The notes under the pieces were generated by a model. The model was not told where the DNA came from. It saw only the letters and a program-made list of their open reading frames with translations, and did not search any database. From Pseudomonadota bacterium (GTDB lineage Bacteria; Bdellovibrionota_B; Oligoflexia; Oligoflexales; CAIYRB01), in NCBI GenBank assembly GCA_031416315.1, contig JANOTL010000020.1, positions 1-52,422 of the forward strand: a DNA stretch of 52,422 bases, read 5' to 3'. A program made the translations under genes and the position numbers. Below, piece by piece: positions 13,874 through 38,514 of this stretch (positions are counted from its first letter, which is position 1; each line of letters starts with the position of its first letter).

Positions 13874-13902
13874 AAGTACCTCCGAGAGTGCGGATTTGTG
13901 AC
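13874..13902 (-). promoter_or_regulatory. ECF-type promoter GTCACA-N17-GTA
   Basis: minus strand GTCACA-aatccgcactctcggag-GTACTT. Confidence 0.65.
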
Positions 13903-13975
13903 GCGTCCGAGCTCAAGAAATTGCCTAAGGTAGCGATAAGAATGTGAACTGTTACCTCACGTTCGGAGCCACCTC

Positions 13976-14182
13976 ATGACAAAGCTCGCACGCTCGATTC
14001 CGGTGATGATTTTAGGTGCCGGCGTCACGATGCTGTTCAGCATTTCGACCGCGTGCGAATCGGGCGGGAAAGATCACGCCGATCCCGCGATGGAGGAAAG
14101 CGGCCATTCCCACGCTGAAGGCGAGGAGCACAGCCACGACAAGAAGACCAAAAAGAAGAAGAAGAAAAAGAAGAAAAGCTAG
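13976..14182 (+). CDS. Small His-rich lipoprotein with poly-Lys tail
   Basis: STAC lipobox-like, GHSHAEGEEHSHD, KKKKKKKKK. Confidence 0.6.
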   Translation: MTKLARSIPVMILGAGVTMLFSISTACESGGKDHADPAMEESGHSHAEGEEHSHDKKTKKKKKKKKKS

Positions 14183-14227
14183 AGTCCTGTAGCTGATATG
14201 CAACCGCCGCAGAACGAACGCTCTGGT

Positions 14228-14470
14228 TCACTTGGAGCTTTCGGTCCCGCTACCAGCTTCGCCTTCTGGCGTTTCCGATTCGTGCTTCGTCCACTGACCT
14301 TTTTGCTTTGCACAGTCCGCGGCCTTCGCTTTGTCGTTCTTGCCCTTCGTTGGGATCTCCTTGTTTTTCTTGATGCACACCCAGTGCTCCTCTGTCCCAT
14401 GGGCGTGCGCCACCGTGGAGACCGCCAGTGCAAGACATCCGCTAAGCAGAGCCATTTTCATCAATTTCAT
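14228..14470 (-). CDS. Small exported protein with N-terminal His and a Cys pair
   Basis: AHA|HGTEEHWVC...DC; directly downstream of the RND gene. Confidence 0.65.
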   Translation of the reverse strand: MKLMKMALLSGCLALAVSTVAHAHGTEEHWVCIKKNKEIPTKGKNDKAKAADCAKQKGQWTKHESETPEGEAGSGTESSK

Positions 14471-14489
14471 GCGCCAATTCCTTCCGCGG

Positions 14490-17400
14490 TTAGAATTCTA
14501 CGTCGCGTAGCTCTTTCTCTTCCTTGGCGTGGTCGCGCTGGATCTTCCTGAGCGCCTTCTGAGCACTCGCTTTTCCGAAAGCGAAGAACACGGCTGGCGT
14601 AACTGCCATGTCGAGCAGAGTACTGCTGATTAGGCCACCAAGAATGACGACCGCGACGGGGTGCAGAATCTCTTTGCCAGGCTCGCCTGCCGCCATCACG
14701 ATCGGCACAAGCGCTAGGGCCGCCGTCAGCGCCGTCATCAGGACGGGAACCAAGCGCTCGAGGCTGCCGCGAACGACCATCTCTGCCGTAAATCCCTCTC
14801 CCTCGTGCGCCATCAGGTGAAGATAGTGCGAAATCATCATGATGCCGTTGCGCGACGCGATGCCGCACAAGGTCACGAAGCCCACCAGCGTCGCGACGGA
14901 AAAAACACCTCCGGAAAGGTAGACGGCGACACAGCTACCGATCAACGCCAACGGAATGTTCAACATGATCTGAGCGGCGATGATCCAAGAGCCGAAGTGT
15001 GCGTAAAGCACGAGCAAAATACCGACCAAGGATATGATCGAAAGCAGGCCAATCGTCCGGGTCGCATTGACCTGGCTCTCGAATTGGCCGCCAAGCTCGA
15101 AGAAGTAGCCTTCCGGCAGCTTTACTTGCGTCTCCAAGGTCTTTTTGAGGTCGGTAACGACCGAGCCCAAGTCCTTGCCCTCCGTGTTCGCCGACACGAC
15201 GATGCGACGCTGTCCATTTTCCCGGTTCACCTGGTTCGGACCATTGCTGATTTGAACCTTGGCGAGCTCGCCGAGCGGGACCTTGGTCCCGAGAGGCGTA
15301 TCGATCAGCAAAGCCTCCATCGTCCTTGGCTCGTCCTTGTAGTCCTGGTCGACGCGCAAGACGACGTCGTACGCGCGATCGCCCTGGAATACTTGCCCGA
15401 CCTGCTTGCCGAGGAAACCGTCCTCCAACCATTCGGAGAGTGTCCCGGCACGCATACCGTAGACGGCCAGCTTCGCGGGATCGGGCAAAATTTGAATCTG
15501 CGGAATGAGCACCGTCTTTTCCACCTGGAGATCGACAAGCCCTTCCACCCCCTTCAGCTTTTCGGCGGTCTCGGCGGCGAGAGAGCGTAGAGTTCCCAAG
15601 TCCGGACCGAAGATTTTCAGGGCAATCTGGGCCCGTACGCCACTTAGAAGGTGGTCGAGGCGATGGGAGATGGGTTGACCGATGTTGGCGACGACTCCGG
15701 GGATCTCAGCCAACTGTCGGCGAAGGTCCCCTAGAATCGCCTCGCGCGAGCGATCCGACTTCTTGAGGTCGACGTCAACCTCTGACGAATGGACACCTTC
15801 AGCATGCTCGTCTTGCTCAGCACGGCCCGTTCGCCTTCCGACCGACACGGTTTCGGGCACGCGCATCAATTGCTGTTCGGCGATCGTTCCGATGCGGTTC
15901 GACTCCGCCAGACTCGTGCCTGGCGGCAGCAAGAGGCTGATCGTGACCGTGCCTTCGTTAAATGGCGGTAGAAACTCGCGACCCATGAAAGCGATGGAAG
16001 TCACCGCGCCGGCGACGCCGAGGACGCACACGATGATCACGAGGCGCGCACGCGGAAGCACGACCTCGAGAAGTCGTCGATCCAAACGCTTTAGCCACCG
16101 TACGAAAGAACCGTCATCGGCGTGTGCCGTCGCTTTGGACTTGGGCAATAGGTACGAGCACAGCACTGGTGTCACTGTCATCGACACGACCAGTGACGCG
16201 AGAATGGAGACGACATAAGCGACGCCGAGCGGAACAAACAAGCGGCCTTCGATTCCGCCCATTGAGAAGAGCGGGATGAACACGAGAATCACGATGATCG
16301 TCGCGAATACGATCGAGTTGCGAACCTCGGCAGACGCTTTGAAAATCACCTTCAGGGAGTTTTCGGGCGTCGCCTTAGCACGGTTCTCGCGAAGTCGTCG
16401 GAAGACATTTTCCACGTCGACGATCGCATCGTCGACGAGCTCGCCAATGGCGACGGCGAGACCCCCCAACGTCATCGTATTGATCGAGACTCCAAAGGCA
16501 TTCAGGACGAGCGCCGTGATGACGAACGACAACGGAATCGCCGTCAACGTAATCATCGTCGTGCGGAAATTGAGGAGAAACAGGAAAAGAATGATGATCA
16601 CGAGGATCGAGCCGTCGCGCAGCGCCTCCTCGACGTTGCCGACCGCGGCCTCAATGAAGTTGGCTTGTTTGAAGAGCTCGTAGATTTTCGCCTTGTCACC
16701 TACGGTCTTCTGCAAGTCGGCCAGCGCTGCCTCGATGTCGCGGGTCAAGGCGACCGTATTCGCGCCTGGCTGCTTTTGAATGCTGAGGATGACACCGGGT
16801 ATACCGTTGACGCTTGCGTCGCCGCGCATCGGCTGGACGCCCTCTCGGACGTCGGCGACCTGATCGAACCGAATCGGGACGCCCTTCTTGATCGCAGCGG
16901 GCGAGCGTTCAATGTCCTCGACGCTGGACATGCGGCCGATGTTCCGAATCAGGCGCTCTTGGTGGGCGTCTTCCGAGTAGCCGCCGGTCGAGTTTCGACC
17001 GAGCTCCAAAGCTGCCGCTTCGACCTCTCCCATCGACAGGCCGAACTCCTTCAGCTTGACGGGATCGAGATTGAGTTGAAACTGTTTGACGCCTCCACCG
17101 ATCGCAATGACCTGTGCGACGCCGGGGATCGACTGGAGCCTTGGCCGCACGACCCAGTCCGCCATGGTCCTGAGGTCCATGGGCTCGACCTCGCTGCTGG
17201 TCATACCGACGAGCATGATCTCGCCCATGATGCTGGTGATCGGACCGATCGCGGGATTGATCCCGGTCGGAAGCGACTCGCGTAGCGAAGTCATCTTCTC
17301 TGAAACGAGCTGACGATCGACGAGCAGCTCCGTCTTCCAGTCGAATTCGACGTAGACGATCGAGAGACCGATGCCGCTGGTCGACCTGACGCGCGTGACG

Positions 17401-17633
17401 CCGGCGAGGCCGGCCATGGCCATCTCGATGGGTCGCGTGACGAGGCTCTCGACCTCCTCCGGAGCATAGCCTTCGGCTTCCGCCATGATGGTGACTGTCG
17501 GCCGGTTGAGGTCGGGAAAGACGTCGATCGGCATCTCGATGATCGTCTTGCCGCCGAGCGCGGTCACGAGAACCGCCACCGCGAGAATCAGCAGCCGATT
17601 ATGAAGGGAGAAAGCGATGATCCGGTTGAGCAT
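14490..17633 (-). CDS. Heavy-metal RND permease (CzcA/CusA family, His-type)
   Basis: 1047 aa; PIDVFPDL, VDDAIVDVEN, FLPPFNEG, EHAEGVHSSE, ISHRLDH, ERLVPVLMTAL. Confidence 0.96.
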   Translation of the reverse strand: MLNRIIAFSLHNRLLILAVAVLVTALGGKTIIEMPIDVFPDLNRPTVTIMAEAEGYAPEEVESLVTRPIEMAMAGLAGVTRVRSTSGIGLSIVYVEFDWKTELLVDRQLVSEKMTSLRESLPTGINPAIGPITSIMGEIMLVGMTSSEVEPMDLRTMADWVVRPRLQSIPGVAQVIAIGGGVKQFQLNLDPVKLKEFGLSMGEVEAAALELGRNSTGGYSEDAHQERLIRNIGRMSSVEDIERSPAAIKKGVPIRFDQVADVREGVQPMRGDASVNGIPGVILSIQKQPGANTVALTRDIEAALADLQKTVGDKAKIYELFKQANFIEAAVGNVEEALRDGSILVIIILFLFLLNFRTTMITLTAIPLSFVITALVLNAFGVSINTMTLGGLAVAIGELVDDAIVDVENVFRRLRENRAKATPENSLKVIFKASAEVRNSIVFATIIVILVFIPLFSMGGIEGRLFVPLGVAYVVSILASLVVSMTVTPVLCSYLLPKSKATAHADDGSFVRWLKRLDRRLLEVVLPRARLVIIVCVLGVAGAVTSIAFMGREFLPPFNEGTVTISLLLPPGTSLAESNRIGTIAEQQLMRVPETVSVGRRTGRAEQDEHAEGVHSSEVDVDLKKSDRSREAILGDLRRQLAEIPGVVANIGQPISHRLDHLLSGVRAQIALKIFGPDLGTLRSLAAETAEKLKGVEGLVDLQVEKTVLIPQIQILPDPAKLAVYGMRAGTLSEWLEDGFLGKQVGQVFQGDRAYDVVLRVDQDYKDEPRTMEALLIDTPLGTKVPLGELAKVQISNGPNQVNRENGQRRIVVSANTEGKDLGSVVTDLKKTLETQVKLPEGYFFELGGQFESQVNATRTIGLLSIISLVGILLVLYAHFGSWIIAAQIMLNIPLALIGSCVAVYLSGGVFSVATLVGFVTLCGIASRNGIMMISHYLHLMAHEGEGFTAEMVVRGSLERLVPVLMTALTAALALVPIVMAAGEPGKEILHPVAVVILGGLISSTLLDMAVTPAVFFAFGKASAQKALRKIQRDHAKEEKELRDVEF

Positions 17634-17636
17634 GGC

Positions 17637-19130
17637 TTACTTCGCCTTCATCAGCAGTTGGTAGTTCCCGGTAGTGACTACCAAATCTCCTTCAGCGAGC
17701 CCGCGCGTGACGACAACGGTTCCTGGTTCCGCGGCGTCGCTCACGGTGACGGTTCTAGGCTCGAACGCCTCAGGGCCGGTCTTGACGAAAATGACGCGAT
17801 CACCGGCGCGATTCAGAACGGCGTCGGCGGGAACTGGAATGCCGTCCTCGACTGCTTTAAGGGCGAAGTTGATGCGTGCGAAGCTTCCGATGCGTAGACC
17901 AGCTGGAGTCTGCGCCAGCTCAAGCAGAATCTTGGCCGTGCGCGTCTCCTCGTTGATGGGAGTCGGCACGTTGACGATCTTGGCAGCAACGGCGTCAGCA
18001 GCTCCTTCGACGCTGACGACGATCGACTCCACGTCGGGCATCGACGAAAGCTGGCTCTGAAAGAGCTCGGCGTCGACCCATAGGACCGACGTATTCGTCA
18101 CCCTCAAGAGTTTCGCTCCGGCTTCCACCCGTGCCCCCTCGACGGCTTCGACCTCGAGAATCTGACCGTCGAGCGGCGACTCGACCGGTATGCTGTTGAC
18201 CGATTGAATCGTCAGGAGCGTCTCACCGCGTCGGACGCTGCGCCCCAAGAAGGCTGCGCGCAGACCACGGACGAACCCCGCCTGAGGGGCGGCGATGAAG
18301 GCGTCGTTCTGTGGCTTTGGGATGATGTGGCCGTACGCTTGTAACAGCCCAGGAAGCGACGCCTTTTTGGCTTCGACCGTTCTCAGTCCTAACAGCAGCT
18401 GTGACTTCTTCGACAAGGTGATTGTTGAGCCGGCAAGATCGCTGGCGCCGGTATCGCTTTCGCCTGCGTGCGAATGCTCCTCACCACCGTGGGCAAAAGC
18501 CGGTCCCTCAAAGGCCGACGTAGTGGTGACCGCAGCCAGCACCGCAATGACCGCGACCCCCCTTCCGCGCAAGCGAAGCACGAGAGTGGCTCCCGCTCCC
18601 AACAAAGCGCCTAGAAGCAGCCCCCCGAGGCCGAACCATCTTTCTCGCGTGTTTGATCGAGGCGCCGCGACGGCCGCGGCCGGCTTCGTGGCATCAGAAA
18701 CCGAGAGCGGCGCGGACAGCTCGATCGACTCCGAGGCTGCTCCAACCTGTATCGTGATGCTCTTAGGGAGCTTGGCGCCCTTTTCGAGCGTCGCCGAGTA
18801 GACGCCCTTTTGCGAGGACGCTGTGAAAGCTGCGCCGCCATCCGCCAGCGTTGCTACGGCACCCGTAACTGGGGCGTTCGTAACTCGGGTCGTCAAATAG
18901 AGGATTGCACCACCTTCGACGCTCGTTTCAATGGCCAGCTCGTACGCTTGACCACGACCGAGGTAATTTTCGGATGCGACCCCTTTCGGGAGCGGATCTT
19001 TTGCGGCGACTTCCTCGTGAACTTCGTCACCGTGACTGAATGCCGGGCCAGCATTGGCGACGAGCGCAGCTATGGTGAAGAGCCAAGCTCGAGCCAGGCG
19101 ACGAAGGTTAGACTTGTAGACCTTACCCAT
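17637..19130 (-). CDS. RND periplasmic adaptor (CzcB-like) with extra N-terminal domain
   Basis: Lipoyl-like VESPLDG, EETRT, VPADAV, GLAEGDLVVTTG; HGDEVH and HGGEEHSH; RBS GGAGG before 19130. Confidence 0.88.
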   Translation of the reverse strand: MGKVYKSNLRRLARAWLFTIAALVANAGPAFSHGDEVHEEVAAKDPLPKGVASENYLGRGQAYELAIETSVEGGAILYLTTRVTNAPVTGAVATLADGGAAFTASSQKGVYSATLEKGAKLPKSITIQVGAASESIELSAPLSVSDATKPAAAVAAPRSNTRERWFGLGGLLLGALLGAGATLVLRLRGRGVAVIAVLAAVTTTSAFEGPAFAHGGEEHSHAGESDTGASDLAGSTITLSKKSQLLLGLRTVEAKKASLPGLLQAYGHIIPKPQNDAFIAAPQAGFVRGLRAAFLGRSVRRGETLLTIQSVNSIPVESPLDGQILEVEAVEGARVEAGAKLLRVTNTSVLWVDAELFQSQLSSMPDVESIVVSVEGAADAVAAKIVNVPTPINEETRTAKILLELAQTPAGLRIGSFARINFALKAVEDGIPVPADAVLNRAGDRVIFVKTGPEAFEPRTVTVSDAAEPGTVVVTRGLAEGDLVVTTGNYQLLMKAK

Positions 19131-19180
19131 TAACCGAAGCCTCCAAGTGACGCGTGCAGCCCGACGGCCGGCACACCCCA

Positions 19181-20446
19181 CTACGTAGTGATGTCCACGA
19201 AAATGTAGCGCCGTTCGACGAGCGCCCCTTCGAATTCGGCGCGCTCACGAGCCGTCTCGACGCGTGCTTCAATGAGCTCCGAGAGAATCTCGAGAACCTC
19301 TGATACTTCAGCCTGGCCCTGGCGAAAAGCCTTCGACGTGCGTTGAAGACTCGCTTCCAAGCGGAGCGCCCTTTGCTCGGTCCGTTGTACGATCCCCAAG
19401 AGACGGGTTACATCAGCTTTCGCCTTGGCGATCTCACGCTCGAGACTTTTTCTGGCAAGCTCACGACGCGCGTCGAGAGCCGCCCTCTCTCCTGTCAGAG
19501 CAGCCGCCTCCGTGCGTGCCGCGGCGCCGGCGCCAAGCGGCAGCGCCACCTCGACTAGTAAGCTGGTTTCACCGCCCAGATCACCCCATGATCTACGAAC
19601 TCCCGCGCTCAGCTCTACTTCGCGACGGGAAAGCAGGACGTCACGCTCGACCGCAAAGGCCTCCTCTTGGAGTTTGAACGCCCGCATTCTGGCAACGCCG
19701 TCAATTTCCGTCGACGCCTCACTTCCGAATTCGTCCGCTAGGCCGGCGAAAGCGAGCGCACCGATTTTCGTCGAGAGCTCGAGCCCGGTGGCACTGCTGA
19801 GTTGCTCGACGTGAGCGCCATAGGCCAGGTGGCTCTGCTCGACATTGGTCGTTAGCTCGTCCAACAAGAGGCGCGCCTTCGTCGCAGGCAACAGCCCAAG
19901 GGTGCCTAGTTTCGCGGCTTGTGCCGCTTGGCTCGCGAGCCGCTCGACATCAGCACGCGCAGTCTCGAGAGCTTGGTGCACTGCAAGCTCCTTGCGTGCG
20001 GCAACATAGATGAGGACGACCTCGCGTTCTTGCTCGACGAGCTCGAAGGAGCGCTCTAAAACCTCAGCGTTTGCGAGCGCGGCGAAACGTCCCGAAGCGC
20101 GCGCTGGGTCGATTCCGACAGCAACGCTTTGGGCGAGACGCACGGTTGCCGAGCCGGGAAGCTGATTGTCGTCCGTCGAGCGGCGTGGGGACAGCTCCGC
20201 CTCGACCGCGATCTTCGGCGCTCCTGGAAATCGCTCGGACTGCCCGATGCTCCGGTTCGAGGCGATGGAGGACGCGGCGACCTTGTACGCAGACAGGTTG
20301 TTCTTACCTCGAAACGCCGAGACAACTCCCGCCACGTCGATTGGCTGTACAGTGTCCTGCTCATCATGGGCATTGGCGGAGGCGGCCCAACAGATTCCTA
20401 ATGCGATCGGAAGCAGGTCTTTAAACATGGACTGTCCTGGGCGCAT
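19181..20446 (-). CDS. TolC-family outer membrane factor (divergent)
   Basis: Signal peptide, long helical repeats, AFRQGQAEVSEVL; first gene of RND operon; start may be 20428. Confidence 0.75.
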   Translation of the reverse strand: MRPGQSMFKDLLPIALGICWAASANAHDEQDTVQPIDVAGVVSAFRGKNNLSAYKVAASSIASNRSIGQSERFPGAPKIAVEAELSPRRSTDDNQLPGSATVRLAQSVAVGIDPARASGRFAALANAEVLERSFELVEQEREVVLIYVAARKELAVHQALETARADVERLASQAAQAAKLGTLGLLPATKARLLLDELTTNVEQSHLAYGAHVEQLSSATGLELSTKIGALAFAGLADEFGSEASTEIDGVARMRAFKLQEEAFAVERDVLLSRREVELSAGVRRSWGDLGGETSLLVEVALPLGAGAAARTEAAALTGERAALDARRELARKSLEREIAKAKADVTRLLGIVQRTEQRALRLEASLQRTSKAFRQGQAEVSEVLEILSELIEARVETARERAEFEGALVERRYIFVDITT

Positions 20447-20493: not shown

Positions 20494-20522
20494 TGATACT
20501 TGCCGTAGCCCAGCCTTGTGAC
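20494..20522 (-). promoter_or_regulatory. ECF-type promoter GTCACA-N17-GTA upstream of RND operon
   Basis: minus strand GTCACA-aggctgggctacggcaa-GTATCA. Confidence 0.65.
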
Positions 20523-20606: not shown

Positions 20607-21803
20607 TCAACTCGCGGGGATTTTGACGTAAACGAGCCCGTTCGGCTTAGCACCGACCGGGACCGTTTTCTTCGGCGCTTTGGTCGCGACGTCGATGACG
20701 GTCAGCGTGCCTTCGCCCTGGTTGGTTACGAAAGCCGTCGCACCGTCTGCTGAGAAAACGAGCGCGTGCGCTCCTTTGCCGGCTTGAATCTCCGCCGCAA
20801 CGTCCGTCGAGCCAGCAGGATAGACAACAATCTTGCCCTCTTCGACGTTCGTCACCCATAGCTCGCCAGAGAGAGCGGTGGCCGCCATTCCGGGCGTAAA
20901 CCCAAGCGAGTAGGTTCGCACGACCAAGGCGGTTTTTGCGTCGATCGCCGAGATCGATTTGTCGGCCTCGTTGTCCACGTACATCAATCCGTCGCTGCCC
21001 TTCCAGGCACCGACCGGGGTTGAGCCGACCGCGACGGTGGCGACAGGTGCCTTCGTGGCGACGTCAAAAACGGAGACCGTCGCGTCACCACCATTCGCGA
21101 CGAACGCGCGCAAACCGTCGACACTGAAAGTCACTTCTGCGGGCATTTTCCCCACGGAGAGCGTCGATTTCGTGGCGAGTGTCGCGGCATCGAGCACGAG
21201 CACCGTTCCCGGCGTAGACATCTGCGCCGTCCAGATCTCCGTGCCATCAGGCGAAAATGCGGCGTTATGGTTTGGATGCTCGAGCTGCGCCGACACGATC
21301 GTCTTTCCCGTCGCAGCTTCGAGCACGATGACAGCGGGGCGGAGCGCGCCGGCGGCCCCATGACTCATCTCTTGCAATCCATGCCCTCCGCCATGCGGCG
21401 GAGCTGGTGGCGTCGCGACCGCAGGGGGGACACCCACCGGTGCCGGTGTAGTCGCGCCGTGGCCTCCACTGAAATCGGAACCAGGCGCAGCGATCGCGAT
21501 CGAGCGCCCTTCGAGGCTGAGCGCGACATGATGCGGGTAGGCCAGATTCTTGAGCTTGATGGTGGCCTTCGGCTCCAACGTCGCGACGTCGATCGCTGTC
21601 AAAGTCGTATCGCCGCCGTTCACGACGATCACGGCATCACCGAGCAACGGCGAAATTTCATCAGAGGACGGCAATCCCGGCGCCGCCGCCTCGTCGCCGT
21701 CGTGGTCCATTCCACCGCAGGAGAACACGGCCGTGCCGGCCGCGAGCGCCATTGCAACGACTGCAAGTGTGGTCGCCAACCAATTCCTTACGCCTGATTT
21801 CAT
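20607..21803 (-). CDS. YncE/YVTN-type beta-propeller lipoprotein, His-rich
   Basis: Repeats FSPDG/FVANGG/VG..P.G; PHH, GGHG, NHN, GAHA; RBS GAGGGGG. Confidence 0.85.
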   Translation of the reverse strand: MKSGVRNWLATTLAVVAMALAAGTAVFSCGGMDHDGDEAAAPGLPSSDEISPLLGDAVIVVNGGDTTLTAIDVATLEPKATIKLKNLAYPHHVALSLEGRSIAIAAPGSDFSGGHGATTPAPVGVPPAVATPPAPPHGGGHGLQEMSHGAAGALRPAVIVLEAATGKTIVSAQLEHPNHNAAFSPDGTEIWTAQMSTPGTVLVLDAATLATKSTLSVGKMPAEVTFSVDGLRAFVANGGDATVSVFDVATKAPVATVAVGSTPVGAWKGSDGLMYVDNEADKSISAIDAKTALVVRTYSLGFTPGMAATALSGELWVTNVEEGKIVVYPAGSTDVAAEIQAGKGAHALVFSADGATAFVTNQGEGTLTVIDVATKAPKKTVPVGAKPNGLVYVKIPAS

Positions 21804-22002
21804 CCGTAACCCCCTCTGAGGAACGTGGAAAGGCGATCCTAGGTGACAGTGCACACTAGCGCGAGACGAATGGCGATTCGTCGCATAGCGGAAGCGCTCG
21901 CCCAATTCACCGAAATCACTCCGAATCAGTTGAATTACTTAAGATTTTCCGGGTTCCGGCCGAGTCGAAGGTGTCCCGGCACGTCGGGGCGGAGGCTCGT
22001 TT

Positions 22003-25972: not shown

Positions 25973-25990
25973 GAGATTTCCTCCGTCATG

Positions 25991-27262: not shown

Positions 27263-27312
27263 GGCGTCGGGCTCCTAGAGGAGTTTTCCCGAACCTACCC
27301 TGCACGGGCTCT

Positions 27313-30227: not shown

Positions 30228-30235
30228 CGTCTCAA

Positions 30236-30264
30236 GGATACCGAAGTTCGTGAGCGTTTGTGAC
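30236..30264 (-). promoter_or_regulatory. ECF-type promoter GTCACA-N17-GTA
   Basis: minus strand GTCACA-aacgctcacgaacttcg-GTATCC. Confidence 0.65.
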
Positions 30265-30270
30265 ATGCCC

Positions 30271-30307
30271 AAAAAAAGTAGCCCGTCTGCGGACTTAGCA
30301 GACGAGC
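30271..30307 (-). terminator. Rho-independent terminator after MCO operon
   Basis: minus GCTCGTCTGC-taagtcc-GCAGACGGGC-tac-TTTTTTT. Confidence 0.75.
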
Positions 30308-30328
30308 CGACAGGTATGTCCGAACGAA

Positions 30329-30616
30329 TCACGGCTGGACGTGGCACTCCAACTCGCCGTCGTGATTGTGGCAGTTGTAATTGAACTCCATGTTCATCGC
30401 GCCGTGGGTCACGTAGATCTTCACCTTCGAGTCTTCGCCGGTCTTCCAGGACTTGTAGCCGACGAAGTGCTCAGCGTGGTCCGGGTTGGTGGCCTCGAAG
30501 TCTTCGACGGCGAGCTTGGTCACTTCGATGAGCTGCGCCGACGTGAACGCCGCGAATGCCGGCGAGCCGATGACGAGTGCCGCGACGCCGCTGACCAGTG
30601 CAAGAGCTGTCTTCAT
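30329..30616 (-). CDS. Small exported protein with CHxH...CH terminus
   Basis: RBS GAGGGGAG, signal AFA, HAEH, YNCHNHDGELECH. Confidence 0.8.
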   Translation of the reverse strand: MKTALALVSGVAALVIGSPAFAAFTSAQLIEVTKLAVEDFEATNPDHAEHFVGYKSWKTGEDSKVKIYVTHGAMNMEFNYNCHNHDGELECHVQP

Positions 30617-30637
30617 GTTCCACTCCCCTCAATGTGT

Positions 30638-31729: not shown

Positions 31730-31767
31730 GACTCCCCCAATGTCTTCCAGCAGTACTATTCTACGTA

Positions 31768-31796
31768 CACTACTTCCTGAAAGGCCCGTTTGTGAC
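31768..31796 (-). promoter_or_regulatory. ECF-type promoter GTCACA-N17-GTA upstream of MCO
   Basis: minus strand GTCACA-aacgggcctttcaggaa-GTAGTG. Confidence 0.65.
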
Positions 31797-31798
31797 GG

Positions 31799-33472
31799 TC
31801 AAGGCGTGCGCTGATAGTGAATGAGCCGATTTTCTGGGAGCGGTACGCCCCAAATTGGCGCACCCGGCCAAAGCAACATGAGACGTCCGTCGGCATCGAC
31901 CACTCCCGTGACCATCCGCGGCCGGTCTCGCTCTTCGGTCAGCCACGCGAGCGTTCCCGTATACGAATCATACGAACCTTGTGCGATTTTGACGCGGACG
32001 CCGAGCCCGCCTGACAAATGCATGGCGCCTTCAAAGGCCAGAGTGCTTTCCTCGCGTCCGACGGGTTGCGTCGGCAATAAGGTGTCGAAGCCCCAGCGAA
32101 CGTCTGAAGAGCTGCCCACGGCCGGTCCTTGGTACGTCCCAGTAATCGGCGCCAACACTTTCGCCGTCGGATCCAGGGGAGGCAGTGGCCCCTTGACGAG
32201 CTGAATGGTTCCCACTCGTCCAAAGGCATGCGAATACCAGACGCCGCGGATGAAGCCTTGGCGCCATTCCTCGACCTGCAGGAAGCCGTCGCTGTTCGGG
32301 CTTTCGAGGTTGAAGCCCGTACTCAGATAGAAACTGCGGCGATCGAACTGCTGAGGCCACCCTTCCGCGTGCGTGTCTCGACCAAAGTGCTGCACACCGG
32401 TCGCCGTAATGACGACCTCGTTCTCGTTATGAGGGTTGTCCGAAGACACGGTCGACATCACGTTGAGGCGAAAGGGCTGATAGCGGTCCAGCGTCTCATT
32501 GTGGAGCCAGCCGGAGAAAGTGCCTCGCAAGGCGTTGACGAGCGCCGTGCTGCGAGGCGGAAGTGGAGCCGGCAACTCAAGGCGTTGCTCAGGGGTGGTT
32601 CGGACGTTGTAATTTCGCCCCGACACGACGAAGGGTCGCGTCGATACGTCGGTCTTGCGCAAGTCGCAGCTCACCGTCTCATCCAAAAACCGGATGCGAC
32701 ACGTGAGGCGACCGGCGGCCAACGCGCATTCGCTCGTCCCCGTCGGCTCGTCGAGAATCAGCTTTCCGGAGAAGTAATTGTAGCTGCCGCCCGAAAAGTT
32801 TCGGACCACGCACCACTCTCCGTCGCAGATGGACGAGTCGCCCTCGGCAAGCCGCGCGACGACGCCATAACCGTGTAGGCCCCGGTCCGCGGCTCCCGAT
32901 ACCGCAAGCCCTTTGCCCGTCGAGATTTGCATGGCCCAGCGCTTCGCTCCGCAGAGTCCTTCGTATTGTCCCGAGAGGCTCGCCATGAACGGCACATCCG
33001 CCCCCGGATCTCCGTCGTCGTCATCGTCGTCGGGCTCGTCCGACAGGTGTTTCAGGAAGATCGTGCCGCTCACCGACGCTGAGCGTACCCACACCTGACC
33101 CGTCACCGTCGTGCTCCCGCCTGCACGGACTTCCGCGGCAATGACTAGGTCGTTGTTCGGCTCGTCGAGCGAGAGCTGGCCATTCGAGAAATCGTAGCGG
33201 ATGTCTTCGAAGATCTCGGTCACATATTCCGAGCCGCCGTAGCCGCCCAGCTGCAGGCGAAAGATCGCATTCAGCTTCGGAAACTGAGTCCGATCGTCGG
33301 GCTGGTCGATATAGGTGTCGACGGTGAGCGCGACGCGTTCACTCGCGTCGTCGAGCTTGACGTAGCCGACGTAGCGTCCGAGCTTCAATTCAGCTTGACC
33401 GAAAGCGGCCGAGCAAGGGAGCCAAATGGTTGCCAGCAGGACAAAGAGGCCACGGAGCAAGTTCGAGCGCAT
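31799..33472 (-). CDS. Large exported beta-rich protein of unknown function (paralog A)
   Basis: 557 aa, signal peptide, colinear similarity to 36712-38451. Confidence 0.85.
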   Translation of the reverse strand: MRSNLLRGLFVLLATIWLPCSAAFGQAELKLGRYVGYVKLDDASERVALTVDTYIDQPDDRTQFPKLNAIFRLQLGGYGGSEYVTEIFEDIRYDFSNGQLSLDEPNNDLVIAAEVRAGGSTTVTGQVWVRSASVSGTIFLKHLSDEPDDDDDDGDPGADVPFMASLSGQYEGLCGAKRWAMQISTGKGLAVSGAADRGLHGYGVVARLAEGDSSICDGEWCVVRNFSGGSYNYFSGKLILDEPTGTSECALAAGRLTCRIRFLDETVSCDLRKTDVSTRPFVVSGRNYNVRTTPEQRLELPAPLPPRSTALVNALRGTFSGWLHNETLDRYQPFRLNVMSTVSSDNPHNENEVVITATGVQHFGRDTHAEGWPQQFDRRSFYLSTGFNLESPNSDGFLQVEEWRQGFIRGVWYSHAFGRVGTIQLVKGPLPPLDPTAKVLAPITGTYQGPAVGSSSDVRWGFDTLLPTQPVGREESTLAFEGAMHLSGGLGVRVKIAQGSYDSYTGTLAWLTEERDRPRMVTGVVDADGRLMLLWPGAPIWGVPLPENRLIHYQRTP

Positions 33473-33489
33473 GAGAGCCTCACTGGTTT

Positions 33490-33506
33490 ATACCCCCCTG
33501 GGGTAT
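33490..33506. promoter_or_regulatory. CsoR/RcnR-type operator between paralog A and csoR
   Basis: ATAC-CCCCCTGGG-GTAT. Confidence 0.85.
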
Positions 33507-33603
33507 CTAATCTCGCAGGCTAACGCCAGCAAATTTAAATTTAAGTCGCCACGTCAGAGTGGCTTCACTTGACCGCGCGGCGGTAGCGGGATAGCAGCTT
33601 GGC

Positions 33604-33915
33604 ATGAAAAAAAAAGCCGTCGCGAAAAAAGCGACCGTCGCCAAGCACCATCCTGACCACGCCCAAGAGCTTCGGCGCCTCAATCGCATCGTCGGCCAGC
33701 TCGAAGGCGTTGGACGCATGATCGAAGAACGACGCTATTGCTGTGACATTCTGCAGCAGACGCGTGCCGTCACTTCGGCGATCCGCGGTCTGGAGGCCGC
33801 GATCCTTTCCACGCATTTACGCCACTGTTTCACCGCCGCGATCGAAACGAAGAGCGAAGAGGCTCGGGCGAAGGTCATCGAGGAATTCGTCGACTTGTAC
33901 GAGCAGCGGCGCTGA
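33604..33915 (+). CDS. csoR: CsoR/RcnR family metal-sensing repressor (Cys-His-Cys)
   Basis: RLNRIVGQLEGVGRMIEERRYCCDIL...THLRHC. Confidence 0.9.
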   Translation: MKKKAVAKKATVAKHHPDHAQELRRLNRIVGQLEGVGRMIEERRYCCDILQQTRAVTSAIRGLEAAILSTHLRHCFTAAIETKSEEARAKVIEEFVDLYEQRR

Positions 33916-33988
33916 GCGTGGTCTGCCTGAATCATGCCTACCGACATTGCAGTGATTTCAGGACCGTAGCCGACCCGCACAGGCCTCT

Positions 33989-34017
33989 GTCACAAAGCGC
34001 TGCCCTGCCCAGTATCT
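33989..34017 (+). promoter_or_regulatory. ECF-type promoter GTCACA-N17-GTA
   Basis: GTCACA-aagcgctgccctgccca-GTATCT upstream of the 34036 / anti-sigma / sigma genes. Confidence 0.7.
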
Positions 34018-34035
34018 ACGGGTGGGAGGTGCGAT

Positions 34036-34446
34036 ATGCGAATTTTCAGCTCGAGTGCTTTGATGTTCCTCACGGCGCTCGGCAGCTCGAAGGCGTTCGC
34101 TCACGGGGAAGACAAACTCGGTCCCAATGGCGGTTTCATCCGTATGCCAGGAGCGTTTCACACCGAGGTCGTACCGACCGCGGACCGCGAGTTCTCCGTT
34201 TTCTTACTCGACCTGAGCAACGGCAATCCGGTGACGGATGGCTCGACGGTCTCGGTCAGTCTCAGGAAGGGCGGCGCCTCGGTCGACGTGACCTGCACCC
34301 CGGCAGCGGCGAGCTTCAAGTGCGTGCTGCCTGCGGACGCAAGCCTGAAATCCGGTCAGCTGCTCGTCCGTGCCTCGCGGCTCGGACTGCCTTCCAGCCC
34401 CGCGTTGTACCCTCTGCCATTGAAGCTGGAGCAGGGTGCGCATTGA
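34036..34446 (+). CDS. Exported protein with N-terminal His, putative metal-binding
   Basis: RBS GGAGGT; AFA|HGEDKLGPNGG...FHTE; Cys pair. Confidence 0.78.
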   Translation: MRIFSSSALMFLTALGSSKAFAHGEDKLGPNGGFIRMPGAFHTEVVPTADREFSVFLLDLSNGNPVTDGSTVSVSLRKGGASVDVTCTPAAASFKCVLPADASLKSGQLLVRASRLGLPSSPALYPLPLKLEQGAH

Positions 34447-34477
34447 TTTGCTGCGCCCGATTCGGGAGAATGCGTCG

Positions 34478-34993
34478 ATGAGCATCAAACGTCTTCAAGA
34501 GCCTCCGCAACGACTCGACCTGGCGATCGAGCGCGCCGTATTGCGCGACCTGGAGCCGGCGATCGCGGTCGTACACCTGAAGACGGCCGCGGCCGCGATC
34601 GTGGGCAGTCTGCTGTCGCTCGCGATCTGTGGGCAGTTTGGAATGGGGTTCACGTCGCTAGCCGACTCCTTCAGCCACGCGCTCCATGCGAACATGGGTC
34701 CGATAGCATGCGCGCTGATCTGCGGCGGGCTTTACGCGATCTTCCCGATCGCGATCCTTCGCTTCGTCCTTTGTAACGTCATGCAGTTTAGAGCCATTTT
34801 TCGTCGAAGCTTCTTTATCATGGCCGCTTGGTTCGCCTGCGTCGGAGCCGTCATGGCTTGGCAAGGCCACCACGGCGATCAAGCTCTCCAGTTCGGTGCT
34901 TGGATCTTCGCAGCTCTGGTCGCGGCGATCGTCCTAGGACGCTTGGCCGGGGCGATCGTCATGCCAATCTTTGACGCACCGGAACGCGTCTAG
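34478..34993 (+). CDS. 4-TM protein with Cys/His, putative anti-sigma factor
   Basis: AICGQFG, HALH, ACALICG, GHHG; adjacent to ECF sigma. Confidence 0.65.
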   Translation: MSIKRLQEPPQRLDLAIERAVLRDLEPAIAVVHLKTAAAAIVGSLLSLAICGQFGMGFTSLADSFSHALHANMGPIACALICGGLYAIFPIAILRFVLCNVMQFRAIFRRSFFIMAAWFACVGAVMAWQGHHGDQALQFGAWIFAALVAAIVLGRLAGAIVMPIFDAPERV

Positions 34994-35022
34994 ACCGTTT
35001 CGTCTCGGCAGAATGGACGCCA

Positions 35023-35038
35023 ATACCCCTGGGGGTAT
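35023..35038. promoter_or_regulatory. CsoR/RcnR-type operator upstream of ECF sigma
   Basis: ATAC-CCCTGGGG-GTAT (8-bp core). Confidence 0.75.
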
Positions 35039-35067
35039 ACTCTTCCTCACCAGTTGAAGTGGGCCCC

Positions 35068-35610
35068 ATGCAGTCGATCGCGGACGAGGAATCGCTCGAA
35101 TCTCTTCTAAGTAGGTATCGCGGGGGAGACGCGGGCGCGTTCCGCGAGGTCTACCGGCGTACGAAGCGGCTGGTTTATGCGTATCTTCGTCGACGTCTCA
35201 GACAGACTTCGGACGTCGAAGACGTCTTCCAAGAGACGTATTTTCGGGTTCACAAGTATATCGCGACCTACGACCCGACTCGAGGCGGTACCACTTGGAT
35301 CCTATCGATCGCGCGGCATGCGATGCTGACCCGCGCCGCCGAGCTCAAGAAGAGCGCTGCGACGGCGGGTCCGCATCTGACGGACGACCTTGCTGGAACG
35401 GAATCGACCGCCGAAGGCGTCGAGATCAAGGGACTGTTGACTGACCTCTGTCGCGATTTATCGCCAGACGAGATCGACCTGCTCTATCAACGGGTCTTTT
35501 TGGACGTCGGGTTCGACGTGCTCGCCGCTCGGCACCAGACGAGCGAGGCGAATACGCGACAGCGCCTTTCGCGATTGATGCGGAAGCTTCGATCGAACTG
35601 GGGCAGCTGA
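35068..35610 (+). CDS. ECF RNA polymerase sigma factor
   Basis: GDAGAFREVY, DVEDVFQETY, WILSIARH, RQRLSRLMRKLR; start 35059 or 35068. Confidence 0.9.
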   Translation: MQSIADEESLESLLSRYRGGDAGAFREVYRRTKRLVYAYLRRRLRQTSDVEDVFQETYFRVHKYIATYDPTRGGTTWILSIARHAMLTRAAELKKSAATAGPHLTDDLAGTESTAEGVEIKGLLTDLCRDLSPDEIDLLYQRVFLDVGFDVLAARHQTSEANTRQRLSRLMRKLRSNWGS

Positions 35611-35636
35611 CGTCGCTTGCCCCCTATGGCAAATGC

Positions 35637-36317
35637 CTATCGAGGCGTGGGTCCAGGTCCCGGGCCGGGTGCCGGACCAGGGTCGGGAGCGGGCCCTGGC
35701 CCTGGACCCGGACCGGGGCCCGGACCTGGTTCGGGACCTGGCTCGGGACCGCCAGGATCTGGATCCGGTCCCGGCCCTGGATCGGGAATCGGTGTCGGAT
35801 CAGGCGCAGGCTCGGGAGCGGGAACCGGGTCGGGCAAATCCGGGACGTCGGGAATCTGAATCGAGGTTCCTGACGGCTGATTCGGCAGCTCTGGATAGAC
35901 GAATGGTGCCGGTTTCGGACGGTCGAGCAGCGCCGATACGGAATCCTCGTCATTTTGCGGCTTCCGCTTGCACAGGGGCACTTTGCGACCCGTTCGCCCG
36001 AACGACTCGGCGAGCTGGAGCGCAATGTCCGCCTGCTTCGCCTTCGACTCGCCGATCTCGAGATCGAGCTCCGCGAGCTTGGACGCGGTTCGTAGGATCT
36101 CGTACTCCTCGCGAGAGATCGCGTCCCGCTCGAGGAGCTGCTCCGCGCGCGCGTATGCCTGGCGCGCGCGTGAAAGTCGAGCTTTCTGGCGCGCGAGCGA
36201 ACCGTAGGCACGTTCCTTTGCGGACGCGAAGAGATAGAGATGCGTCGACTCCGCCATGACCGGCGTCGCGACGAAGAAAAATCCCACTAGGAGCCAAGCG
36301 CAGCGCGCCATGTTCAT
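35637..36317 (-). CDS. Exported alpha-hairpin protein with Pro/Asp/Gly tail
   Basis: Signal peptide; RAEQLLERDAISREEYE; KVPLC; PD/PE/PG tail; ATGA coupling. Confidence 0.75.
   Translation of the reverse strand: MNMARCAWLLVGFFFVATPVMAESTHLYLFASAKERAYGSLARQKARLSRARQAYARAEQLLERDAISREEYEILRTASKLAELDLEIGESKAKQADIALQLAESFGRTGRKVPLCKRKPQNDEDSVSALLDRPKPAPFVYPELPNQPSGTSIQIPDVPDLPDPVPAPEPAPDPTPIPDPGPGPDPDPGGPEPGPEPGPGPGPGPGPGPAPDPGPAPGPGPGPTPR
35646..35856 (-). repeat. Low-complexity hexanucleotide-like repeat encoding (P-x)n tail
   Basis: PDPGPGPDPDPGGPEPGPEPGPGPGPG. Confidence 0.8.
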
Positions 36318-36715
36318 TCCATCTCGTAAGTGCAGAGCGGAATCGAGACGCCGCGATTGACGAGGCCGGTGATGATCTTGAGGTAGGCTTTCGACTCGTC
36401 GACTTTCTGGTTCGCCAGGTCGATGTCCGCCTTCGACACGGCGTCGTCGGAGACCAGGGTCTCGTATTCTTCGAGGGACATGGCCCGACTCGCAATCAGC
36501 CGGCGCCCACGCTCGAGCTTCGAGGCGGCGAGCTCCGCGAGCGCCGCTTTACGTCGGCTGTTCGCCTCCGCCTGCGCGACCCGCAAACGGTAGAGCTCGA
36601 TGTACGGGTTGTCGTCGCCAGCGGTCTCATCCGCGTAGGCGTAATACCCGAGCGTAGCGCCCAATCCGAGCGCCAGCGTCGTCGCCGCGATCCAGATCTT
36701 GATCCTTGCCTTCAT
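36314..36715 (-). CDS. Exported alpha-hairpin protein (paralog of 35637-36317 core)
   Basis: AYA signal; RGRRLIASRAMSLEEYE; SIPLC; ATGA coupling on both sides. Confidence 0.78.
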   Translation of the reverse strand: MKARIKIWIAATTLALGLGATLGYYAYADETAGDDNPYIELYRLRVAQAEANSRRKAALAELAASKLERGRRLIASRAMSLEEYETLVSDDAVSKADIDLANQKVDESKAYLKIITGLVNRGVSIPLCTYEME

Positions 36716-38451
36716 GGTTCCACCCCCATACGAGAATAAGTGCCAAACTCTCGATCAAAAACGCTGACGGCCCAGGCGCGCTCGTTCGGCCAGAAAAGTT
36801 TCAGGTCGCCGCGATCACCCACCCGCCCCGTAACGAGGCGGGTCTCGCCATCATTCGCGGCGTCGACGACCCAGGCTAGGGAGCCCGAGTAAAAGTCGTA
36901 GGCGCCTTCCGTGATGCGAATGGAGGGCCAAGACACGCCACCGGCGGTTAGGCGCGAGTTTCCTTGGAACACGAGCAGGCTCTTGTCTGAGGTCCTAGGC
37001 TGGGTCGGCACGAGAAGCTTCGCATCCCAGAATTCACGGCCGTCGGCACTGCGCTCCGACGGACCATGGAAGTCGCCGATGACGGTGGGAACCATGCGTG
37101 CGCGGGCGTCGAGCGTCGGGAAGCGGTCCGATTTCACGACCTGAAAGGTTCCGACTCGACCGAACTCGCGTGAATACCAGACCCCGGTGACCAGTCCGCG
37201 TTGCCATGTCGAGACTTGGAGGAAGCCGTCGGTTCCCTCGCTCGAAAGAATGAAGCCCGGGACGACGTACAAGGACCTCCGATCATACTGCTGCGCAAGT
37301 AGGTCGGGGCTTTGACCTCGGCCGAAATAAAGCACCGAAGTCACGGAGACGTGGACCACGTTTTCATTGTGCGGGTTGATCGAGGAGTTCGTCGCGACCA
37401 CGTTCAGACGAAGCGGCTCATAGAGACCAGTCGTCTCATTGTGCAGATAGCCGAAGAAGGACCCGCGAGCAGCGGTAATGAGCTCGGCATTTGCCGGCGG
37501 CAATGGATCGGGAAGCGCACGCCGTTGATCCGGCGTGCTGGCGACGTTGTAGAAGCGGGACTTGGGCTCGTACTCGGTGATCTCACTGCCGACCCGATGG
37601 AAGCGGCAGTCCTTTTCGAGGAGGCCGTCGCCGTTTCTGGGAATGATGTGCATGCGGCAGGAGAAAGACGCGCCGTCGCGTTGGCACTCGTTGGTCTCAA
37701 GCGTCCCGGACAAGAAGAGCTTGCCCTGATAGTAATCATACTGCCCCGAAGAAAAGGCGTGGTCGACGCACCAGACCGGGCGACCGGAGGCATTGACGGC
37801 CGAGCACAGACCGTTGCCGATGCCGAGGGCTCCGGTAATCTTGTAATCGTGAAATCCGCTCGTCGGCTCGGAGCCCGCGTCCGAGAGGCCGCGAGCCGTC
37901 TCGATCTGAAGAACCGCGGACTCTTCGCCGCACGCGCCCTCGTACTGCCCGGAAAGGGTCGGCGCCAGGGGAGGCAACGGCCCGGTTCCGCCGCCACCCG
38001 GCTCGTCGCTCTGGAAATAGAGGACCAGTCGGCCCATCTGCCCGGTCGAGCGGAAGACGACTTCACCCTCCATCTGCGTAGGGTTCGAGTAGACGACGGC
38101 GGTCACGATCATCTCGTTCTCGGCTTCGTCGAGGGCCAGCACTCCTAGATCGTAGCTATAATTGACCGCGATGAAACGCTGCGTCTCATACTCGCTCGAA
38201 ACGAAGCCGCCGAGGCTCACCCGAAAAAGGAGCTCCAAGCGCTGAAAGGCGTCAATGCCATCGGGCTTGAACAGGTAGCTGTCCATGGTGAGCGCCAGAG
38301 CATCAGATTGACCCTCCGGCTGCACGTACCCGACCCACTTGCCGAGCATGAGCTCGCCCCCAGGCTCGCGGGCATCTGCGACGGAATGTGTGCTCACGGC
38401 CAGCGTCGACATCAGCAACGTGCTTACGAGTCGGAAGATGGTTCTCATCAT
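36712..38451 (-). CDS. Large exported beta-rich protein of unknown function (paralog B)
   Basis: 579 aa, signal peptide, colinear similarity to 31799-33472. Confidence 0.85.
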   Translation of the reverse strand: MMRTIFRLVSTLLMSTLAVSTHSVADAREPGGELMLGKWVGYVQPEGQSDALALTMDSYLFKPDGIDAFQRLELLFRVSLGGFVSSEYETQRFIAVNYSYDLGVLALDEAENEMIVTAVVYSNPTQMEGEVVFRSTGQMGRLVLYFQSDEPGGGGTGPLPPLAPTLSGQYEGACGEESAVLQIETARGLSDAGSEPTSGFHDYKITGALGIGNGLCSAVNASGRPVWCVDHAFSSGQYDYYQGKLFLSGTLETNECQRDGASFSCRMHIIPRNGDGLLEKDCRFHRVGSEITEYEPKSRFYNVASTPDQRRALPDPLPPANAELITAARGSFFGYLHNETTGLYEPLRLNVVATNSSINPHNENVVHVSVTSVLYFGRGQSPDLLAQQYDRRSLYVVPGFILSSEGTDGFLQVSTWQRGLVTGVWYSREFGRVGTFQVVKSDRFPTLDARARMVPTVIGDFHGPSERSADGREFWDAKLLVPTQPRTSDKSLLVFQGNSRLTAGGVSWPSIRITEGAYDFYSGSLAWVVDAANDGETRLVTGRVGDRGDLKLFWPNERAWAVSVFDREFGTYSRMGVEP

Positions 38452-38485
38452 GTTTGCGAACTGCCCCCTTTGGTTCTTGCGGGCA

Positions 38486-38514
38486 CTCTACTCGCGCTCG
38501 GAGAGATTTGTGAC
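38486..38514 (-). promoter_or_regulatory. ECF-type promoter GTCACA-N17-GTA
   Basis: minus strand GTCACA-aatctctccgagcgcga-GTAGAG. Confidence 0.7.

Follow-up and report, generated by a model that had tools for sequence, protein, structure and literature searches.

The stretch analysed here, hereafter the window, is a 52-kb contig (JANOTL010000020.1) from the 6.36-Mb genome of a bacterium of the Oligoflexia. It is a metal-resistance island with a G+C content of 0.609, the second lowest among the 112 contigs longer than 20 kb (median 0.652), and encodes ArsR, a cation diffusion facilitator transporter, MerR, CsoR, CopA, two heavy-metal resistance-nodulation-division (RND) systems, a multicopper oxidase and three extracytoplasmic function (ECF) sigma factors. 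We have focused on one of these, sigma 35068, on the neighbouring membrane protein 34478, and on a motif consisting of GTCACA, a 17-nt spacer and GTA (GTCACA-N17-GTA) that stands in front of several operons of the island. Related loci are denoted by L-numbers (L001 etc.) and the genomes of the set by G-numbers, G000 being the genome of the window itself.

An earlier note on this DNA had claimed six exact copies of the motif, and all six are present (Table 1); in 100 dinucleotide shuffles the mean was 0.04 and the largest count 1. The sites had been located correctly, but the spans given were three bases too long (e.g. 13877-13902, not 13874-13902). Each site is, as had also been claimed, fully intergenic and lies 11-50 nt 5' of a co-oriented start, a placement that comprises 1.6% of window positions in a hand-curated gene list. 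Equal frequency in random or coding positions, named in the note as grounds for refutation, was not observed. Common to all six sites are an A directly 3' of GTCACA and a purine directly 5' of GTA. The reported one-mismatch copy, ATCACA-N17-GTA, was also recovered; as a class, one-mismatch matches are weakly enriched in the window (10, against a shuffle mean of 4.0, with 1 of 100 shuffles reaching 10).

Genome-wide there are 13 exact sites, six of them within the window, and 1-6 sites at each of the other spacers (12-16 and 18-23 nt); the seven exact sites beyond the window are near background. When the genome was scored with a matrix trained on relatives only, the six sites and the one-mismatch site at 44918 came out as the top seven of 307 candidate rows, and the regulon therefore appears to be confined to the island. 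These rows contain some shifted duplicates, and the matrix, being derived from AT-richer genomes, favours the AT-rich 44918 site. A genome-wide regulon was dropped, there being no convincing sites outside the island, and a mobile or dispersed repeat was rejected as source of the motif because the spacers are unlike one another and none of the sites falls within a listed repeat family.

To place the motif in a wider context, 131 genomes of the phylum were surveyed, of which 62 carry the sigma 35068 family and 52 carry homologues of its partner 34478. An unbiased count of all words composed of a 6-mer, a spacer and a 3-mer in the roughly 700 nt preceding each of 25 close homologues of the partner gene ranked GTCACA-17-GTA first (20 of 25). 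Sites with a spacer of 16 or 17 nt were found in the partner-containing loci of 41 of 46 related genomes, the window excluded; these 46 are the genomes with a fetched partner-containing locus, fewer than the 52-62 carrying the family. In the 566 kb of these loci 65 sites have the N17 and 17 the N16 spacing, as compared to 1-5 at each other spacing, and 20 additional loci picked by sigma similarity alone yielded 14 and 9 sites, respectively, versus 0-2 at other spacings. The consensus of 57 sites from relatives is tGTCACAww-N14-GTAtw, with T 5' of GTCACA in 46 of them. Whole-genome counts of the 9-base pattern in the 131 genomes matched those of the reversed-pattern control, and it is only the local enrichment that carries information.

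The motif accompanies the sigma/partner pair in every gene order observed. Among close relatives, in which sigma and partner occur in any order, it most constantly precedes the partner gene, and the sigma gene is often convergent or divergent without a site of its own; none of the close-clade sigma genes checked had an exact site within 260 nt upstream, and several sit further along a motif-led operon. In a distant clade the partner gene overlaps the sigma stop codon at +1, with the motif before sigma. The system is, to judge from the sequences, multiplied in G036, the close relative to which L001, L002 and L004 all belong, which has four or more copies of the sigma gene and several of the partner gene, all of them accompanied by sites. 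At L003:9480-9529 two divergent promoter copies overlap, one GTAC palindrome serving both as -10 boxes.

From these data the six sites are almost certainly ECF promoters, with tGTCACA as the -35 and nGTA as the -10 element, and sigma 35068 is very probably their reader. The latter had been proposed in the earlier note and is supported by the conservation of the motif beside the sigma/partner loci and by the rarity of the other two ECF sigma factors, which have motifs of their own (see below). The reason then offered, autoregulation, holds in part: the partner, and presumed inhibitor, is a target, but the sigma gene often lacks a site and is here preceded by a separate sigma70-like promoter.

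The profile of sigma 35068 aligns over both sigma2 and sigma4 to SigK, RpoE and SigW, and ECF structures are its best matches in the PDB. It shows the features of ECF group 4, namely sigma2 and sigma4 only, a length of about 180 residues and a bipartite -35/-10 motif conserved beside the locus, and all 30 aligned members of its family stop just after region 4. Among the NCBIfam models listed, it scored above the cut-off of no named equivalog or subfamily.

Protein 34478 is modeled as an N-terminal helix and four membrane helices with a predicted local distance difference test value (pLDDT) of 93. Its predicted inside segments are rich in Lys and Arg and its outside loops in His and Met, and the predicted topology puts three cysteines where helices 1 and 2 reach the periplasm. 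Cys51, Gln53, Cys78, Cys82 and Trp142 are invariant in 42 of 42 partner sequences, and all three cysteines are present in 136 of 145 distant representatives. The family amounts to 638 clusters at 50% identity; in the Atlas its clusters are unnamed only, Bdellovibrionota being the commonest phylum, and the cluster names ('hypothetical protein' or none) do not fix its range outside this phylum. There was no consistent Pfam match among the 42 and 68 members scanned, no DUF1109, and no PDB match. No plasmid match was obtained. Foldseek found nothing at E ≤ 0.001 and the best VIA hit was a designed bundle (Z 7.0), which does not make the fold new. Compared with the window's other anti-sigma candidate (3919-4455), the family profile gave a probability of 0.1%.

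The predicted complex between sigma 35068 and 34478 scored 0.75, against 0.01 for the best control, with at least 93% of contacts agreeing between runs and a partner pLDDT of at least 81. Among solved pairs the mark applied is attained in 116 of 157 cases and among mismatched pairs in 2 of 215; these figures are only roughly valid here. In the model, partner residues 3-26 lie on region 2 of the sigma factor, and residues 101-109 and 161-166 make further contacts, all of them in Lys/Arg-rich stretches predicted to be cytoplasmic. The predicted placement of a short N-terminal helix on region 2 may point to a class II (CnrY-like) domain; no structural homologue that would confirm this class was found. 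We are reasonably confident in the predicted role of 34478 as an anti-sigma factor. The earlier note had correctly seen that the GTA-led genes lead into sigma 35068, but had overlooked the anti-sigma candidate as well as the CsoR link and the copper theme.

Table 1. Promoter motifs, predicted regulators and candidate target operons in the window
Feature	Position	Strand	Remarks
ECF-type promoter motif	13877-13902	-	48 nt before 85-aa open reading frame (ORF) 13828-13571
ECF-type promoter motif	20497-20522	-	50 nt before outer-membrane efflux protein (OEP)-membrane fusion protein-RND operon; orthologous operon in L002 also behind exact site
ECF-type promoter motif	30239-30264	-	11 nt before lipoprotein ATG at 30227; terminator-like hairpin 30308-30280 just upstream
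ECF-type promoter motif	31771-31796	-	41 nt before multicopper oxidase; L002 oxidase (61% identical) behind exact site
ECF-type promoter motif	33989-34014	+	21 nt before CrdA-like gene and anti-sigma candidate; top-scoring site of the genome
ECF-type promoter motif	38489-38514	-	37 nt before paralogue B operon
One-mismatch site ATCACA-N17-GTA	44918-44943	+	106 nt before small lipoprotein and cusCBA operon
Target operon	14228-20446	-	OEP, His-rich adaptor, heavy-metal RND pump, small secreted protein (Pfam, NCBIfam, CusA alignment)
Target operon	26237-30227	-	Lipoprotein, two-CxxCH c-type cytochrome, secreted protein (Pfam/NCBIfam)
Target operon	30329-31729	-	363-aa multicopper oxidase (two-domain-laccase-like), small secreted protein
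CsoR-type operator	33490-33505		Between paralogue A (33472, minus) and csoR; fits CsoR boxes in PMC5057107
CsoR	33604-33915	+	Pfam PF02583; Cys46-His71-Cys75 copper fingerprint, spacing 25/29 as in PMC5057107
CrdA-like secreted beta-sandwich protein	34036-34446	+	Model pLDDT 79
Predicted anti-sigma factor	34478-34993	+	171 aa; cytoplasmic N-terminal helix, four membrane helices, Cys51/Cys78/Cys82 predicted on periplasmic side
Sigma70-like promoter TGGACG-16-TATACT	35014-35041	+	CsoR-type operator 35023-35038 over spacer and -10 box
ECF sigma factor	35068-35610	+	180 aa, no C-terminal extension; TIGR02937 63.2 bits (cut-off 42.9)
Target operon	35637-38451	-	Paralogue B (579 aa, secreted, unknown family), followed by two small proteins of weak efflux-adaptor-hairpin similarity; three genes syntenic in L001
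Likely target operon	45050-51471	+	Small lipoprotein, CusC-type OEP, adaptor, true CusA with all three methionines

One correction concerns the targets listed originally: the 13902 site leads to an unlisted ORF, and only the 20522 site leads the RND operon. The ORF has a signal-peptide-like start, and since neither the genome nor the 35 loci searched yielded a homologue it is uncertain whether it is a real gene. Divergent from the same promoter is a 68-aa His-rich lipoprotein-like ORF with a poly-Lys end (13976-14182(+)), without Pfam match. A near-leaderless message is likely from the 30239-30264 site, which is so close to the ATG; in L060 the lipoprotein-diheme pair is likewise downstream of an exact site, and in the window this operon may extend to a cytochrome-like lipoprotein ending at 25391. 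The 44918 site is probably functional, since in relatives an exact site stands before the orthologous cusC gene, either immediately or with the partner gene in between: this is so in 11 of the 12 relatives that carry the sigma family and in 0 of 2 that lack it (G006 and G098, 91-92% complete).

The model of protein 34036 was compared to 48,161 chains, and its best match was Helicobacter pylori CrdA (9ll2; Z 10.4, root-mean-square deviation 2.4, 93 residues aligned), followed by DUF4426 (Z 8.8), the metal-binding HftA (8.4) and Tp34 (8.1), with P19 lower; Foldseek alone gave nothing at E ≤ 0.001. By fold the protein may be called CrdA-like, albeit likeness of fold is no proof of function. Its gene shares an operon with that of the partner in the window, and the same arrangement is seen in five other loci. 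Downstream of the sites in relatives are genes for outer-membrane efflux proteins, heavy-metal RND/CusA-type pumps and multicopper oxidases, for a P1B ATPase, and for the partner itself. With CusCBA, multicopper oxidases, CopA and a CrdA-fold protein among the targets in relatives, copper or silver is likely to be the main signal.

CsoR constitutes a possible second layer of control. It combines the Cys-His-Cys fingerprint with TACCC..GGGTA operators, as expected of a copper-sensing CsoR. Such palindromes number two in the window (33491 and 35024) and six in the genome, and the promoter over which the second one lies is the sole sigma70-like hit in 24000-39200, where shuffles yield 2.5. In G020 the sigma gene and csoR are joined in one unit with a CsoR-type operator. 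A general CsoR operator before every homologous sigma gene was sought and not found; the link is limited to the window, to G020, and to a CsoR within 2-8 kb in G030, G121 and G056. No terminator-like site was called between the 33989 motif and the sigma gene, and read-through from the former into the latter is therefore possible. Two secreted proteins of unknown family, 37% identical to each other, are placed under different elements, paralogue A (31799-33472(-)) behind a CsoR-type operator and paralogue B (36712-38451(-)) behind an ECF motif. Two further paralogues occur on C111 near RND pumps and an oxidase, and the paralogue/operator/csoR divergon is also found in L047; for paralogue B the Atlas held nothing useful.

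The overall best explanation, which we regard as fairly probable, is that the six promoters are served by sigma 35068, and that this sigma factor is held at the membrane by 34478 and released on copper. At rest, the partner would retain the sigma factor at the membrane with its N-terminal helix over region 2. Periplasmic copper, bound by the three cysteines of 34478, would release it, and the free sigma factor would transcribe the genes for efflux pumps, multicopper oxidase, CrdA-like periplasmic protein and secreted proteins, as well as for its own inhibitor, resulting in negative feedback. Here, and in a few other genomes, CsoR as a cytoplasmic Cu(I) sensor would also gate the synthesis of the sigma factor, with Cu(I) lifting CsoR from the sigma promoter, so that output would depend on copper in the periplasm and in the cytoplasm alike.

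Whether the three cysteines bind metal directly is, in our estimate, an evenly balanced matter. With the same sigma factor, promoter and anti-sigma factor, the cysteines could instead form a thiol-disulfide switch of the kind proposed for NrsF/OsrA, answering to oxidative or disulfide stress, and the action of metals would be indirect or extend to a broader range (Zn, Cd, Ag). The ECF16 anti-sigma factors have two periplasmic cysteines and respond to heavy-metal or oxidative stress (PMC6180224), the exact-site RND pump is not of the CusA type, cytochromes are among the targets, and the island contains dsbB/dsbA-like genes. On the other hand, three cysteines and not two are conserved in 34478, the loops on the cysteine side are rich in His and Met, CusCBA and multicopper oxidases recur most constantly among the targets, and no peroxidase or reductase was found among 29 downstream proteins scanned. 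A thiol switch is therefore the less likely arrangement, though the strongest competitor of release by copper.

Another conceivable arrangement is that 34478 is merely a regulated membrane protein, e.g. a metal transporter or chaperone, and that the sigma factor is controlled by synthesis alone, via CsoR or a constitutive promoter. It would agree with 34478 being often transcribed apart from the sigma gene and being itself a target, and with its lack of similarity to catalogued anti-sigma factors. We find it rather improbable, as the homologue in the distant clade, overlapping the sigma stop codon, has the usual position of an anti-sigma gene, 34478 stays linked to sigma in every gene order, and the predicted complex passes with a specific placement of the N-terminal helix on sigma.

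The sites might also be read by one or both of the other ECF sigma factors of the window, sigma 3408 and the CorE-like sigma 41242. Sigma 3408 has the same -35 element at the same distance in its own motif, GTCACA-N15-CCTAGAC, which lies before the sigma gene itself (3332-3359(+)) and before a secreted rhodanese gene (4467-4494(+)), and cross-talk is therefore possible. Upstream of its one relative (L044:2011(-)) the sequence is GTCACA-N15-CCTATAC, giving GTCACA-N15-CCTA(G/T)AC as the common motif. A third copy of this type is located elsewhere in the genome (G000 C95:59639(-)), and sigma 3408 is followed by the Cys-rich membrane protein 3919-4455, without Pfam match, which is the window's other anti-sigma candidate. 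Sigma 41242 has a CxC linker and a Cys-rich C-terminal tail as in CorE, and Myxococcus xanthus CorE governs a multicopper oxidase and an ATPase (PMC3107203, PMC10141476); its -35 element is, however, defined around AAC (PMC3107203). In the copZ / copA-corE divergon (38593-41799), TGTAAG-N16-CGTC is found 5' of copA (38949-38974(+)) and of the divergent copZ (38848-38873(-)), and TGTAA(G/C)-N16-CGTC recurs before CorE-like genes in two relatives (L046 and L048). The TGTAAG pattern is not rare genome-wide (16 matches, with 3-16 at other spacers) and is a candidate CorE-type promoter, though ECF238 motifs have been described as not conserved. At E ≤ 1e-20, sigma 3408 occurs in 2 and sigma 41242 in 4 of the 131 genomes, compared to 62 for the sigma 35068 family, i.e. 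both are nearly absent where the GTA motif is common. Each also has a conserved motif of its own, so by this comparison there are three motifs for three sigma factors, the GTA motif belonging with sigma 35068, and a reading by either of the others is very unlikely.

Least probable of all is that the motif is the operator of a DNA-binding regulator, whether a CRP/FNR half-site, an OmpR-type box or the GTA end of a CsoR operator, notwithstanding that TCACA is a CRP half-site and that a CsoR is encoded in the window. GTA does end CsoR operators (PMC3902906), but the sites are asymmetric and oriented, their spacing is rigid at 16-17 nt as in the ECF41 geometry (PMC3426412), the true CsoR-type palindromes are found at other positions, CsoR is missing from most genomes that carry the motif, and a CRP/FNR or direct-repeat operator was rejected since neither a second direct or inverted half-site nor a CRP left half was found.

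Several points weigh against release of sigma 35068 from 34478 by copper. The whole case is computed from sequence comparison and models, and the related genomes are not independent, the counts being uncorrected for the tree. In five of the 46 genomes the locus fetched contains no exact site (that of G030 has one with a single mismatch, and two of the loci are shorter than 2.5 kb), and L086, L092 and L093, which are hits to sigma only and have no partner gene, are devoid of sites. The negative control for cusC consists of two genomes. The passing score of the complex may partly reflect likeness to solved ECF/anti-sigma complexes, and Cys51, Cys78 and Cys82 are placed by predicted topology. The cysteine pairs of NrsF/OsrA-type anti-sigma factors have been connected with oxidative stress and also with metal stress (PMC6180224). 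In an alignment to CusA the window's exact-site RND pump lacks the methionine triad, and the true CusA is found only behind the one-mismatch site, so that the metal is perhaps broader than copper. Among the close-clade loci checked, a CsoR-type operator directly 5' of sigma is found only in this window, and CsoR itself in only 24 of the 131 genomes, which on this survey makes the CsoR layer an optional one.

In other bacteria CusCBA and CrdA are under two-component control by CusRS and CrdRS. The present system shares these output genes and the presumed periplasmic copper signal, with a predicted sigma/anti-sigma pair instead of a kinase and a response regulator. It is comparable to CnrH-CnrY-CnrX of Cupriavidus metallidurans (ECF291, formerly ECF20) in that an ECF sigma factor controls a CBA metal pump along with the sigma factor's own regulators, a short N-terminal cytoplasmic helix sits on the sigma factor (predicted here; CnrY on CnrH, PMC6851896) and a periplasmic protein is co-transcribed in several loci. 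However, CnrY is single-pass and needs the sensor CnrX (PMC6851896), whereas 34478 has four predicted helices, three cysteines of its own and a CrdA-like beta-sandwich neighbour; the metals are Ni/Co there and, by our reading, copper here. The -35 element and its distance from the -10 element (spacer of 16±1) are those of ECF41, TGTCACA-n16-CGTC (PMC3426412), including the frequent T before GTCACA. In contrast to ECF41, the -10 element ends in GTA (nGTA(t)) and not GTC, the sigma factor has a membrane partner and no SnoaL extension, and the candidate regulon is a multi-operon metal regulon and not one neighbouring oxidoreductase gene.

The ECF16 pairs SigF-NrsF and EcfF-OsrA (DUF1109) likewise feature a multi-pass anti-sigma factor with periplasmic cysteines and a role in metal or oxidative stress, and SigF has a CGTA -10 element (PMC7826278), but they differ by six helices and two cysteines, as compared to four and three here, by a GTAACC -35 element, and by the DUF1109 match that is lacking here. 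CorE/CorE2 of M. xanthus (ECF238, formerly ECF44) also control copper detoxification genes, but CorE senses metal by its own Cys-rich tail without an anti-sigma factor; this description fits sigma 41242, the CxC linker and Cys-rich tail being absent from the sigma 35068 family. SigAb-AabA-AabB of Acinetobacter baumannii (PMC12153292) is a copper-induced ECF system with an anti-sigma factor and a similar -35 element, GTCAAC, but has a CGTT -10 element, three direct targets with metal genes affected indirectly, and RseA/RseB-like partners. A similar -35 element, TGTCAC(A), is predicted for ECF103, ECF250 and ECF288 (PMC7826278 supplement), whose -10 elements are TCT, GTTATATA or TGTCTAAT and which have single-pass anti-sigma factors (103 and 250) or a Cys-rich tail without anti-sigma factor (288).

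The part of the PMC7826278 supplement that was searched gives GTCAC for ECF41, 103, 250 and 288 only, none with this -10 element or a four-pass partner, and its three 'four transmembrane' passages concern other groups. No group in the text of the ECF re-classification (PMC7826278) fits, as far as that text was covered, the comparison being one of published descriptions. A description of the motif or the family was not found in the literature searched, in which the ECF supplement was included in part; its logos and CorE figure S3 lie outside that search and could bear on novelty. The pair would work like CnrH with an ECF41-like -35 element, and fits the definition of none of the tested ECF groups, apparently representing a sigma/anti-sigma type that has not been described.

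A more far-reaching proposal, which we put forward tentatively as somewhat more likely to fail than to hold, is that 34478 founds a new class of membrane copper sensors. Cys51, Cys78 and Cys82 would together coordinate Cu(I) through their three sulphurs on the periplasmic side and free an ECF sigma factor that directly runs CusCBA, multicopper oxidase and CrdA-like genes, taking the role of CusRS across Oligoflexia-like bacteria (638 clusters); the sigma factor would drive its inhibitor and not itself in many genomes, with CsoR adding a two-compartment copper AND gate here, where three ECF sigma factors would use three promoter codes, two of which have the -35 box in common. If true, a directly acting sigma/anti-sigma pair for copper export, with the cysteines in the anti-sigma factor itself, is a further design beside the metal-responsive ECF systems of the literature consulted, in which copper acts on the sigma factor's own tail (CorE), carotenoids are made (CarQ), metal genes are reached only indirectly (SigAb) or a separate sensor is used (CnrH). 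An unnamed family of at least 638 clusters would also acquire a function, as would several secreted proteins that are so far anonymous. Being small (one sigma factor, one 171-aa partner and a 26-nt promoter), the system is cheap to rebuild in Escherichia coli, possibly as an orthogonal copper-responsive switch, and the variants GTC, GTA and TAG, which occur with a common -35 box, lend themselves to a test of how ECF region 2 recognizes the -10 element.

Some further features of the island and the genome were noted. The secreted helical proteins 12982-13476(+) and 24867-25304(+) have 'ADH..DH' motifs that are similar by eye, and no Pfam match. Two divergent YVTN beta-propeller lipoproteins (20607-24753), 42% identical, contain His-rich inserts, the longer one also repeated Ig-like units and CxxCH, and have no ECF site 5' of them. 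The metal island is interrupted at 6195-12751 by a block encoding a pyridoxal-phosphate decarboxylase, a hydrolase, a glycosyltransferase, an ATP-grasp-like protein and a polysaccharide flippase. Elsewhere in the genome (G000 C70:1400-1560), four closely spaced and near-identical TATACC..GGTATA palindromes resemble iterons or an operator array.

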